Source: a marine bacterium B5-7
Lineage (GTDB): Bacteria; Pseudomonadota; Gammaproteobacteria; BQJM01
DNA: 64,000 nt
Reading direction: 5' to 3'
Assembly (NCBI GenBank): GCA_021604705.1
Contig: BQJM01000001.1
Coordinates: 72,887 to 136,886 of the forward strand
Below are positions 34,835-37,174 of the stretch, one piece after another. The notes beneath the pieces were generated by a model. The model did not search any database. It saw nothing but the letters and a program-made list of their open reading frames with translations, and was not told the origin of the DNA. The position numbers and the translations under genes were made by a program. Position 1 is the stretch's first letter, and the number at the start of each line of letters is the position of its first letter.

Positions 34835-37174
34835 TTATGCCACGTGTTTGTTGACCGGGGCAGCTGGTAGAGCTGCAGTCAGCGTAACATCAGGCGCTTT
34901 TCCATAAAAGAGTTGATTAAAACAAACTCCTTCATCTTCCAGTTCATCTTCATAATCGTCTGTTGTGACGTTAATGGATTCTTGCGTATGCTTAAGTGCT
35001 TTTGTTAAGAAGCTAAGTGTCTTTGTGACTTTCCGAGCATCGATAGAATTTTCTTTGATGTCTTGCAGCGCCTCATTTTTAGTCTCATCAAGCATACTGT
35101 CCACATCAATACCTTCGTCCGTAGTGTCAGCAGCTTGCTTTGCAGCGTGAATCGCTAAGGCATGATCAATCACACGTTCAATCATAGAGCGTGTGTTAAA
35201 TTTAAAACATTTTGCGATGAAGCGTGACCAAAATCGTTTGTCTGTTGTGTCATTGAGTTGGATTATATTTATTGTGCCGCTAGTTTCTCGAGGTAAATCA
35301 CCCTGTGCTGTTAACTGTGCTTTAATCGCATGTAAGCGTGTGGCTAATCGACCTTGTGGCACAGGATTTTTTTGCAGGAGACTGATAAGTTTGAGTGGCG
35401 TGGTTAATATTGGCGAGATAATGGCTATTGCAACAGTCAGCCAGACGTCGTAACGCTGAAAAAGACTACGTCCCAAGCCAAGCACCAAGGCTATAGGGCC
35501 CGTCGTTAATGCGGCTGCAAGGTAGCCTACGCTACCTAACACTTTACGTTCTGTGCTACGTGTGTCGGCAGCGAGTGCGCGAAATGCTTGGCGACCTAAA
35601 GCGACATTCATTAAAGCACCACTGAAAGTCATCCAGCTTGTCACGCATTTATCTAGGTAGCGTATGAAATTAACCGCTGTGCTGAAGGGTAAAGCGACCG
35701 CTATTCCTAATAAAGCGCCAGGTGTAGAAAGCGCTTTGAACCAACGCGATTGTGTGTTGTTAGTCCATGGGCCATCTATTTTACCGCTACTGAGTGTGGC
35801 TGTGCTAGGAAGGGCTGCATCAATAGCCAAGATAAAAGCACGGCCGAAGCTTTCAAGATTGTTTACGATAAGTCGTTGTGTTGCGACGACAGCGATGATA
35901 AGGGGGCTCCATATAAAAAACAGCGCAACAATGCTAGGGAAGCCTAGGACATATTTAGAGAACCAGCTACGCTTGTCGATATCCGCATATTTTGTCGTTG
36001 AGCCTTTTTCGAGGAGCAAGTTGCCATCCTCATCTCTTGAAAAGGGGGAATCGTCCGCTGGAAAAACCCATTCTAACAAGGCTGCGTACAAATTGAGTGG
36101 TGGCACACTATTGAGAAGAAGACGTTTAAATAGTTGATAAGTCGCAAGCACGAGGGCAAAAGGTAACGCGCATGCTATCCCCAAAAAACCTTGTCCGAGG
36201 TGGATGCTAGTATCTTCTTCCGTATCTGGTAACTTATAAGAAAGCATAGCCCCCTTTCGGTGAATGGATAGAGGTAGTGATTGAGTGACAGTTGTTGAAT
36301 TGTCACTGTAGGCTTTTTCTGCATCTGAAAGGTCAAGTTTATAGCTGACTATGTCGAGAATGAAACGAGCGGTGTTAAGCGTTTCTAGCAAAATAGCGGG
36401 GGTATTCGCAAGCCCTCTAAGCAATAACATCACTGGCGCTGTAACACTAGAAATTGCTGCACCCAAGAAATACCCTGGGGCCCCAGCGAGGTATTTCACT
36501 GGCCAATGGCGATTATCTTTTTTTATATAAGAAGGTTCCGGCATTGCGGCGTCTTTGGCGAGCATCTTATTGTTTATCGCAATAAAAGTACGCTGTAAAT
36601 TTTCAGCGGTTTGCACGGCAATCATTGTTAACAAACCAGCGGCACCAACGACAATGGCTGCAGGTAATGCGTAGAACAAGCGACCCAATCTTGCAGAGGG
36701 TTTTTCAGGGAGATTCTGGCGCCAGATGTTACGGGTGCTGTGATACCACAATTGATCCCAAATCGTTTTTGCGTAATGTGCGGTGTTTAAGGTTAGTGGT
36801 AGAATGGTCACAGAAGCTAACATACTCAGTGTGTTGAGTTGCAATACCCACAAGGCAGCATAAGCGAGAGGGTGTCTCATGACATGAGCACTACGGGAAT
36901 CCGCATCCGCATCCGCAGCCGCATCCGCAGCCGCATCCGCAGCCGCAGCCGCATCCGCATCCGCATCCGCATCCGCATCCGCATCCGCAGCCGCAGCTAA
37001 ATCCATAGTGTGCTGGCCAAGCAAACGAAAGGATAGCCACATGCTGTCGGCGGTAAATTGTCTTAAGGCACGCCCCTTGCGTTTAGTCGCGCGCCACATT
37101 TCTCGGCCTTGCGTGCTGAGTGCCAACCACATTGTGCGTAATTCTGCTTTTGTGATGAAGAACTGAGATGCCAT
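34835..37174 (-). CDS. large hypothetical membrane protein with N-terminal (Asp-Ala)n tract; paralog of 37619..39175
   Basis: 779 aa. The C-terminal ~280 aa align with the neighbouring ORF (..IVNN..GRxFILAxxxxL...GPWTNxxQ...STPGALLGIAxxxPFS..GALMNVALGRQ). A hexanucleotide SSR encodes the DA tract. Confidence 0.5.
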   Translation of the reverse strand: MASQFFITKAELRTMWLALSTQGREMWRATKRKGRALRQFTADSMWLSFRLLGQHTMDLAAAADADADADADADAAAAADAAADAAADADADSRSAHVMRHPLAYAALWVLQLNTLSMLASVTILPLTLNTAHYAKTIWDQLWYHSTRNIWRQNLPEKPSARLGRLFYALPAAIVVGAAGLLTMIAVQTAENLQRTFIAINNKMLAKDAAMPEPSYIKKDNRHWPVKYLAGAPGYFLGAAISSVTAPVMLLLRGLANTPAILLETLNTARFILDIVSYKLDLSDAEKAYSDNSTTVTQSLPLSIHRKGAMLSYKLPDTEEDTSIHLGQGFLGIACALPFALVLATYQLFKRLLLNSVPPLNLYAALLEWVFPADDSPFSRDEDGNLLLEKGSTTKYADIDKRSWFSKYVLGFPSIVALFFIWSPLIIAVVATQRLIVNNLESFGRAFILAIDAALPSTATLSSGKIDGPWTNNTQSRWFKALSTPGALLGIAVALPFSTAVNFIRYLDKCVTSWMTFSGALMNVALGRQAFRALAADTRSTERKVLGSVGYLAAALTTGPIALVLGLGRSLFQRYDVWLTVAIAIISPILTTPLKLISLLQKNPVPQGRLATRLHAIKAQLTAQGDLPRETSGTINIIQLNDTTDKRFWSRFIAKCFKFNTRSMIERVIDHALAIHAAKQAADTTDEGIDVDSMLDETKNEALQDIKENSIDARKVTKTLSFLTKALKHTQESINVTTDDYEDELEDEGVCFNQLFYGKAPDVTLTAALPAAPVNKHVA
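36899..36996. repeat. hexanucleotide simple-sequence repeat (GCATCC/GCAGCC)x~16 inside the CDS
   Basis: Directly visible. On the coding strand it gives DADADADADAAAAADAAADAAADADAD. Confidence 0.9.

Follow-up and report, generated by a model that had tools for sequence, protein, structure and literature searches.

The SSR discussed here raises the question whether a hexanucleotide array encoding part of the N-terminal region of a large hydrophobic protein is a device for varying that protein, or an array produced by slippage and simply tolerated. It was found in a window of 64 kb, the whole stretch of DNA analysed, from the MAG 'marine bacterium B5-7'. In a codon-by-codon view the array covers 99 bases at 36899..36997 on the minus strand, comprising 16 units and one further codon and corresponding to residues 60-92 of the encoded protein. 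Tandem Repeats Finder (TRF) places it at 36899..36995 with a period of 6, 16.2 copies, 92% matches and a score of 159. Two unit types that are one base apart, GATGCG (U1, ten units) and GCTGCG (U2, six units), are arranged in the order U2 U2, six times U1, U2 U2 U1 U2 U1 U2 U1 U1, followed by the terminal GAT. The longest perfect run extends over 41 nt or 6.8 copies (36949..36989, minus strand) and represents the most slippage-prone part of the array.

Such an array is not expected by chance in this DNA. No other SSR with a period of at least 4 and at least three copies was detected elsewhere in the 64 kb window, and the array is enriched over shuffled sequences. Hexamer runs appeared in none of 30 sequences simulated with a fifth-order Markov model, and the array contains 14 occurrences of the 12-mer GCATCCGCATCC (at most one mismatch), whereas 0.36 would be expected across the whole window. 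In the codon view the edges of the SSR are sharp and decayed units are absent from its flanks, which suggests a recent origin or an ongoing homogenisation. In a single-strand DNA fold (z = -2.48) the flanking GCTGCG blocks can form a stem from which the (GATGCG)6 run is looped out, and this pairing could render the array more unstable. A role of the SSR on the plus strand was rejected, because no plus-strand ORF of at least 60 aa spans the repeat.

The encoded peptide, AAAA(DA)6 AAAA DAAA DAAA DADAD, consists of 22 Ala and 11 Asp in 33 residues and is written with only three kinds of codons (16 GCG, 6 GCT and 11 GAT, n=33). Ala at even positions is always GCG (16/16), Ala at odd positions always GCT (6/6) and Asp always GAT (11/11), at a codon usage across the window of 0.29 for GCG, 0.18 for GCT and 0.76 for GAT. 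For the GCG column alone the chance amounts to 0.29^16, approximately 2.5e-9. Since this strict usage of three codons is very improbable in view of the window-wide usage, we infer that the tract originated by slippage at the DNA level, and the array is best described as a repeat of the DNA and not as the outcome of selection on amino acids. Tandem copies beyond chance, a unit length that is a multiple of three inside a translated ORF, and uniform synonymous codons characterise the SSR as a coding microsatellite. The initial annotation had described an in-frame hexamer SSR that encodes a tract close to the N-terminal end of a large membrane protein; the position in frame, the translation and the hydrophobic nature of the large protein are supported here, and also its statement that hexamer slippage keeps the frame holds for this 6-nt unit within codons 60-92. 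The peptide string it gave shows the Asp-Ala tract but omits AAAA at the beginning and one DA.

The host protein of 779 aa is encoded at 34835..37174 on the minus strand (ATG at 37174, stop included) and contains an N-terminal motif, the tract, about eight hydrophobic segments in about five degenerate family modules, and a conserved C-terminal domain. A Shine-Dalgarno sequence, AAGAGG, can be read at 37181..37186 (minus strand), separated from the ATG at 37174 by the 6-nt spacer CTTATC. About 75 nt upstream of this ATG lies a sigma-70-like promoter, TTGACC-16-TATAAT (37249..37276, minus strand), which is a consensus match only (11/12). Upstream of the tract and in frame with it, a segment conserved in the protein family is encoded (residues 13-59; 36998..37138, minus strand), ending in FRLLGQHTMDL. 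Downstream, the profile and the spacing of the motifs define the first hydrophobic helix with SVTxxPLxxN (residues 108-136; 36767..36853, minus strand). An N-terminal profile made from 18 homologs, with the window protein left out, matches the host protein at residues 13-59 (i-E 4.3e-05) and at residues 108-136. After deletion of the tract in silico this profile gives one contiguous match (37.5 bits, E 9.5e-11), and in a protein begun at M99 it finds the second half of the domain only (E 0.0021). Because of the Shine-Dalgarno sequence, the promoter-like site and the family motif upstream of the tract in frame, a start of translation at the upstream ATG 37174, and with it translation of the tract, is supported. 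The next Met is indeed M99, about 100 residues into the ORF as previously noted, and the doubt about the start that had been attached to it can be regarded as settled by these signals and by the profile, which matches before as well as after the tract.

A search with the C-terminal domain (hmmsearch, 1.84 billion representatives) returned 81 hits, 54 of them with E<=1e-10 and 9 with E<=1e-30, where the count of 81 refers to clusters at 50% identity. Seven members are named and originate from Legionella massiliensis, L. quinlivanii, Legionella sp. 16cNR16C, Tatlockia and Legionellaceae MAGs and one Gammaproteobacteria MAG. The region of the last module and the C-terminal domain (residues 396-779; 34838..35989, minus strand) is common to this Legionellaceae family; invariant columns of the domain align between the host protein and the family members, and its motifs are SWxxxSGxLMN, ADxR, GxxGY, RKxxxFN..ER and FxxLFYG. 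The N-terminal signature of the family, RAHYNLLGQ[HYF]T, then a linker and then a helix with SVTxxPLxxN, is present in the host as well. Characteristic of the family is a module of about 65 aa composed of NDxRxWxxKYxxGxPG, a Gly-rich hydrophobic segment and RxIxNSxKTxxR. An HMM of this module matches the host at residues 219-258 (2.5e-09) and 400-459 (1.5e-12), together with three weak matches, and finds 17 modules in the L. massiliensis protein. On account of the profile hits, the aligned C-terminal motifs and the module matches, we classify the host protein, on the basis of sequence, as a short and divergent representative of the hydrophobic-module repeat proteins, a Legionellaceae family that is as yet uncharacterised. 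It has the N-terminal motif, the module and the C-terminal domain in common with L. massiliensis BN59_01889 (1526 aa), L. quinlivanii Lqui_0096 (1482 aa) and proteins of a Tatlockia sp. MAG, but is far shorter than these Legionellaceae relatives, has about five degenerate modules instead of 17, shows only 21-26% identity in the C-terminal region and is alone in carrying the Ala/Asp tract.

The label 'lineage-specific', given to the protein earlier, is correct with regard to close orthologs, none of which were found for the 779-aa protein in the databases searched, but not with regard to the family, whose 81 clusters include L. massiliensis, L. quinlivanii and Tatlockia. A word-indexed protein search with the full 779 aa or with residues 100-779 gave no match and missed even the paralog of 44% identity, which marks the limit of its sensitivity; with the family alignment it returned the paralog and nothing else. 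A contig profile search of genomes found no relatives with the 779-aa protein and, with an alignment of five sequences, L. massiliensis only, by way of one restrictive pattern. No meaningful Pfam, NCBIfam or PADLOC domains were obtained for the window proteins or the family members, a PDB profile search gave no relatives of the family, and tblastn against plasmids gave no plasmid-borne ones. A literature search by MAG, run and homolog accessions likewise found nothing on the family.

Next to the host gene, a tandem paralog of 518 aa is encoded at 37619..39175 on the minus strand (DHS20C10_01120 in the MAG), with 44% identity to the host protein over a 322-aa alignment. As had been stated before, the paralog lacks the tract. 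This absence is uninformative on the dynamics of the tract, since the whole N-terminal motif, the linker and the first helix are absent, too. The paralog gene is preceded by identical promoter hexamers (39279..39251).

Within the family, the tract occupies a variable linker that follows the N-terminal motif (LLGQHT) and precedes the first hydrophobic helix. GQ[HYF]T and SVTxxPLxxN lie 68 aa apart in the host; in 17 of the 18 homologs this spacing is 35-45 aa, in the remaining one 56 aa, and the sequence of the linker, for which the family consensus reads PIEQELLxxxPPxxxLN, varies among these 18 homologs. Runs of at least four (Asp/Glu)-(Ala/Gly/Ser/Pro) dipeptides in succession occur in 0/81 family representatives. 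The linker carrying the tract thus appears to be permissive and poorly constrained.

The initial annotation had compared the protein to variable surface proteins. By inspection only, the N-terminus (MASQFFITKAELRTMW...) has no h-region, no lipobox, no signal peptide and no LPXTG, and residues 1-59, upstream of the first hydrophobic segment, contain 10 Lys/Arg, so that this likeness finds no support. Judged by hydrophobicity and the positive-inside rule, Lys/Arg are present in every loop of the host protein without alternation and favour no particular topology. A prediction with AlphaFold2 from an alignment of two sequences was unusable (mean pLDDT 33.5, pTM 0.20), and the helix that it placed over part of the tract is no evidence. 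The only type IV secretion system in the window is a VirB-type type IVA cluster. An acidic block, DDYEDELEDE, is located 34-43 residues from the C-terminus of the host protein and is not diagnostic of a type IV effector. No RTX domain was found in the window proteins with Pfam and NCBIfam.

The locus is known from one MAG and one sequencing run. From 28145 to 36978 an independent Logan assembly of this run, DRR328265, agrees with the window in every base and thereby confirms the initial 80 nt of the array, mixed units included. Its k=31 contig ends 30 nt (k-1) into the 41-nt perfect run, and this break is explained by k=31, because a de Bruijn graph must stop k-1 into a perfect run. Logan contigs of DRR328265 also break at REP elements, and owing to these breaks they carry no allele information. 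Searches of proteins, genome contigs and metagenome contigs revealed no second genome, strain or sample with the locus; among JGI metagenome contigs the paralog alignment retrieved no relatives and the SSR flank had no exact match, and a look-up of the exact 779-aa product gave no record.

Comparable arrays have been described in other bacteria. The hexanucleotide VNTRs Ms27, Ms28 and Ms34 of Coxiella burnetii differ between genomic groups and are nearly fixed within them (PMC8156542), which indicates, by analogy, that short hexamer arrays in a related order are slow markers rather than hypermutable ones. These MLVA6 markers are short arrays of 6-nt units and belong to the same mutational class as the SSR described here, but their variation has been measured, whereas our SSR is longer (16 units of two types), lies in a defined protein linker and is known from one genome. 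In the collagen-like adhesin Lcl of L. pneumophila, the number of in-frame GXY repeats is polymorphic and correlates with adhesion and biofilm formation (PMC6460258). As in our case, the copy number alters protein length without a frameshift; Lcl, however, has a signal sequence, is extracellular and forms a GXY collagen helix, whereas the host protein has no signal peptide and carries a low-complexity spacer of dipeptide type. BapA of Paracoccus denitrificans, with 891 Asp-Ala repeats, is required to form biofilm and has been predicted to be a calcium-binding protein, and both BapA and SdrC of Staphylococcus aureus (Ser-Asp) alternate Asp with a small residue on the basis of short DNA repeats, as does our tract (PMC5588039). 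The tracts of BapA and SdrC comprise hundreds of residues in secreted or wall-anchored proteins, in contrast to 33 residues in an N-terminal linker without a secretion signal, and the likeness is one of composition only. Dipeptide-repeat stalk adhesins are defined by a secretion or anchor signal and a repeat of hundreds of residues, and the host protein has neither.

Taken together, we consider it probable that the SSR is a coding microsatellite, made by slippage and nearly neutral, in a permissive linker of a Legionellaceae-family protein. Replication slippage of a 6-nt unit (GATGCG with its one-base variant GCTGCG) would have created a young microsatellite, which expanded inside the linker between the LLGQHT motif and the first hydrophobic helix. 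Translation of the array would add an acidic Ala/Asp spacer of 33 residues and lengthen the linker by about 25 residues in comparison with the relatives. Gain or loss of units would alter the length of the spacer alone and, because the unit length is a multiple of three, would never silence the gene. Most likely, the tract is tolerated rather than a programmed variation device, and from one lineage to another its copy number probably differs, at a modest rate as is usual for hexanucleotide VNTRs.

A translated array would not exist if the true start were M99 (ATG at 36880) and the SSR lay in a 5' leader or promoter, its length tuning expression. We regard this as very improbable: the first Met past the tract is residue 99, and the paralog has no equivalent N-terminal region, but an SD-like sequence is absent before ATG 36880, a good one together with a promoter-like site precedes ATG 37174, the family motif is encoded upstream in frame, and a protein begun at M99 retains half of the N-terminal domain match. 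It is likewise very improbable that the array or its copy number is a product of mis-assembly, even if the source is a MAG and the Logan contig breaks inside the perfect run, as this independent contig is identical base for base over the first 80 nt. Short reads typically have 100-150 nt and single reads should span a perfect run of 41 nt; an uncertainty would concern at most the count in this run.

The remaining alternatives ascribe a function to the tract. In an adaptive contingency locus, frequent hexamer slippage would generate coexisting length isoforms of an exposed segment, by which hosts or predators are evaded or adapted to. The in-frame array with its perfect run of 6.8 copies and its blockwise mosaic of two unit types, the possible slipped-strand hairpin and the precedent of Lcl as a functional coding VNTR in Legionella (PMC6460258) are in line with this idea, and the mosaic and the 41-nt run fit an actively varying VNTR as well as a near-neutral array. 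However, neither the missing signal peptide and lipobox nor the basic first 59 residues indicate exposure on the bacterial surface, a 6-nt unit inside the CDS and downstream of the start cannot switch the gene ON/OFF, and the other family representatives, which have no comparable acidic dipeptide tract, do not use such a device. With a single SSR in 64 kb, no contingency repertoire is visible in the window, and the short hexamer VNTRs of Coxiella are stable within lineages (PMC8156542), so that we judge a contingency locus unlikely. A functional acidic spacer of fixed length, which would serve as a stalk, helical or flexible, or as a patch binding cations and so fix how far the N-terminal motif lies from the membrane-embedded part, seems doubtful to a similar degree. 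The tract replaces a linker present in all relatives, its 11 Asp per 33 residues beside a membrane segment could serve cation binding or spacing, and long Asp-Ala regions are known from BapA (PMC5588039); yet the sampled homologs have no acidic or repetitive linker, the complete uniformity of the codons suggests that the tract arose by mutation recently instead of being maintained for a function over a long time, and the 891 repeats of BapA belong to the very different context of a secreted adhesin. Going further, the tract might be a slippage-tunable acidic spacer in an undescribed Legionellaceae family of giant hydrophobic-module proteins, possibly secretion substrates inserting into host membranes, where copy number sets the distance from motif to module and the population holds functionally different isoforms; we mention this as a speculation with a small chance of being correct.

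Taken by itself, the SSR belongs to a common type of feature. Should the array vary, it would be a handy typing marker for this uncultured marine gammaproteobacterium and, at the same time, a natural experiment in which linker length is altered in a so far unstudied family of proteins. Of greater use is a by-product of the analysis, this family itself, whose members are large proteins of Legionella type containing as many as about 17 hydrophobic modules in tandem.

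The hexanucleotide repeat is located on the minus strand, where Tandem Repeats Finder places it at 36899..36995 with a period of 6, 16.2 copies and 92% matches, and where the codon view assigns it to codons 60-92 of the ORF 34835..37174, i.e. 36899..36997. The repeat described in the initial annotation is thereby confirmed. Its 33 codons are of three kinds only (GCG 16, GCT 6, GAT 11) and form two units one base apart, GATGCG encoding Asp-Ala and GCTGCG encoding Ala-Ala. Two GCTGCG units are followed by six GATGCG, two GCTGCG, one GATGCG, one GCTGCG, one GATGCG, one GCTGCG, two GATGCG and a final GAT. 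The tract peptide is therefore AAAA(DA)6AAAADAAADAAADADAD, which had been given correctly before except for the leading AAAA and one DA. The longest perfect run (36949..36989) comprises 41 nt or 6.8 copies. The array is the sole SSR of its kind within the 64 kb window and far exceeds chance: hexamer runs appeared in none of 30 fifth-order Markov simulations, and the array 12-mer (≤1 mismatch) has 14 matches in the array, where 0.36 would be expected over the whole window. Mis-assembly in the source is an extremely improbable origin, as run DRR328265, assembled independently in Logan, gives a contig base-for-base identical to the window from 28145 to 36978, well into the array. This contig ends 30 nt inside the perfect run, as expected from the unavoidable break of a k=31 de Bruijn graph at that point, an effect that carries no information on polymorphism. 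The match and the position of the stop thus speak against an array created by the assembly.

On present evidence, the tract is translated. A spacer of 6 nt separates the ATG at 37174 from an upstream AAGAGG, and a TTGACC-16-TATAAT site (11/12 match) is found at 37276..37249; the same promoter-like hexamers are present upstream of the start of the tandem paralog (37619..39175). A profile built from the N-termini of 18 homologs, with the window protein left out, matches residues 13-59 of the host protein, ending in FRLLGQHTMDL upstream of the tract, and also residues 108-136 with the SVTILPLTLN helix. When the tract was deleted in silico, one contiguous match was obtained (37.5 bits, E 9.5e-11), whereas a protein begun at M99, the first Met after the tract, matches the second half of the profile only. 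The decisive point for translation is the motif conserved in distant relatives and encoded in frame upstream of the tract. That the SSR is untranslated leader sequence is very improbable, since the profile matches on both sides of it. The doubt about the start site raised in the initial annotation is settled by these three features in favour of the upstream ATG.

In the profile alignment, the whole tract is an insertion between two conserved halves. The segment from GQ[HYF]T to SVTxxPLxxN, a motif of the first hydrophobic helix, measures 35-45 residues of variable sequence in 17 of 18 homologs, 56 in the remaining one and 68 in the host protein. No family representative of the 81 has a stretch of at least four (Asp/Glu)-(Ala/Gly/Ser/Pro) dipeptides in a row. 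The paralog indeed has no tract, as was noted earlier, but this is uninformative because it lacks the entire N-terminal motif, linker and first helix.

Within the array, GCG stands at every second position and the remaining positions are GCT or GAT only. The genes of the window show mixed usage (Ala GCG 0.29, GCT 0.18; Asp GAT 0.76), and the strict register therefore marks the tract as a DNA-level repeat rather than the outcome of long-term selection on an Ala/Asp peptide. The sharp boundaries and the two unit variants arranged in blocks fit an expansion by replication slippage that is recent or still being homogenised. The single-strand DNA fold of the array (z = -2.48) hints weakly that the GCTGCG blocks flanking (GATGCG)6 could pair and loop the run out as a plausible slipped intermediate. 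As the unit has 6 nt, a length change keeps the frame, as had been proposed, and alters the spacer only; ON/OFF switching is impossible.

The array is an in-frame coding microsatellite, an already known kind of feature. We consider it probable that it is nearly neutral: it would expand by replication slippage in a permissive linker and be tolerated there, with a copy number that probably changes from one lineage to another at a modest rate, like that of other hexanucleotide VNTRs. As a model for this rate we take the Coxiella burnetii markers Ms27, Ms28 and Ms34, which separate genomic groups and are nearly fixed within each (PMC8156542). The locus is known from one MAG and one run; other contigs on record carrying it were not found, and JGI metagenome contigs yielded neither relatives of the host protein nor matches to the SSR flanks.

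The initial annotation compared the product with variable surface proteins; an adaptive, size-variable exposed segment of this kind is unlikely. Coding VNTRs can matter in Legionella, where adhesion and biofilm formation correlate with the number of GXY repeats in Lcl (PMC6460258), but the host protein on inspection is without a signal peptide, has 10 Lys/Arg in its first 59 residues, and similar tracts are not otherwise used in the family. In the topology analysis Lys/Arg are present in every loop, with no alternation that would orient the protein. Of the initial interpretation, the translated in-frame repeat stands, whereas the likeness to variable surface proteins is not supported. It is equally doubtful that the tract has a function as an acidic spacer of fixed length or as a patch that binds cations. 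Asp-Ala repeats are also found in Paracoccus BapA, which is however a secreted adhesin with 891 repeats (PMC5588039), and the uniform codons of the array argue for a recent origin. More doubtful still is the idea that slippage tunes the spacer in a protein that may be a membrane-inserting secretion substrate.

The host gene belongs to an island of unknowns between an ABC-F ATPase and GlnRS, formed by the two family members and two orphans of 628 aa (31559-33445, +; many hydrophobic segments) and 453 aa (33457-34818, -), both flanking the host gene and without significant Pfam, NCBIfam or PADLOC matches or paralogs in the window. A REP-like hairpin element, GTCATCCCGCACTTGATGCGGGA, is present in 12 copies (≤3 mismatches; 0 expected by chance), all on the plus strand, at 22440, 22945, 27765, 27939, 37519-37605, 59284-59462 and 59989. 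Some copies are arranged in tandem arrays, one between the two paralog genes (period 32 nt) and one at 59280..59478 (period 52 nt), and Logan contigs break at these elements. At 27639-27966, a 174-nt unit in tandem (1.9 copies, 98% identity) holds the hairpin and other inverted repeats and may be a MITE-like composite element. Pfam identifies a VirB-type cluster for type IVA secretion or conjugation at 2792-10173 (-), with VirB11-like ATPase, VirB6/TrbL, VirB10/TrbI, VirB9/CagX, VirB8 and VirB4. Adjoining the glutaminyl-tRNA synthetase gene, a 515-aa protein (41281-42828, +) carries a Fic/DOC domain, which is common among effectors of intracellular bacteria. A tRNA-Thr(TGT) gene (42863-42937, -) adjoins a TPP riboswitch (43401-43504, +) upstream of thiamine-biosynthesis genes. 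A GH18 chitinase-like protein (10662-12113, -) and an FRG-domain protein (14656-15801, -) are also encoded.

The host protein has no Pfam, NCBIfam or PADLOC match. A word-indexed protein search gave no match either, which is uninformative because it also missed the 44%-identical paralog. An exhaustive HMMER search with a profile of the two paralogs, tract excluded, recovered 81 clusters (54 at E≤1e-10, 9 at E≤1e-30). One match is the paralog itself, 'hypothetical protein DHS20C10_01120 [marine bacterium B5-7]', from a MAG of an unclassified gammaproteobacterium. Named relatives, annotated as hypothetical in every case, are L. massiliensis BN59_01889, L. quinlivanii Lqui_0096, Legionella sp. 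16cNR16C, two Tatlockia MAGs, one Legionellaceae MAG and one Gammaproteobacteria MAG. The protein, called lineage-specific before, is so only in that the searches recovered no close ortholog; it belongs to a family reaching into Legionella and Tatlockia. Searches for the family in PDB (by profile), in plasmids and in the literature found no relative, copy or paper, and no Pfam or NCBIfam model was found. Since AlphaFold with a two-sequence alignment of the host protein gave a pLDDT of 33.5, no structural inference was drawn. Most proteins of the family measure about 400-2000 aa, although a few representatives are short fragments. At the N-terminus they share the motif RAHYNLLGQ[HYF]T[AF]PIEQE, together with numerous ~65-aa modules in tandem (NDxRxWxxKYxxGxPG, a Gly-rich hydrophobic stretch, RxIxNSxKTGxR) and a conserved C-terminal domain. 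With about five degenerate modules and 21-26% identity to the family in its C-terminal region, the host protein can be classified as a short, divergent member. BN59_01889 (1526 aa, 17 tandem hydrophobic ~65-aa modules; positions 2956-7536 of the locus examined in NZ_CCVW01000002.1) can be regarded as the archetype. This undescribed Legionellaceae module-repeat family is a more interesting by-product of the analysis than the SSR itself.
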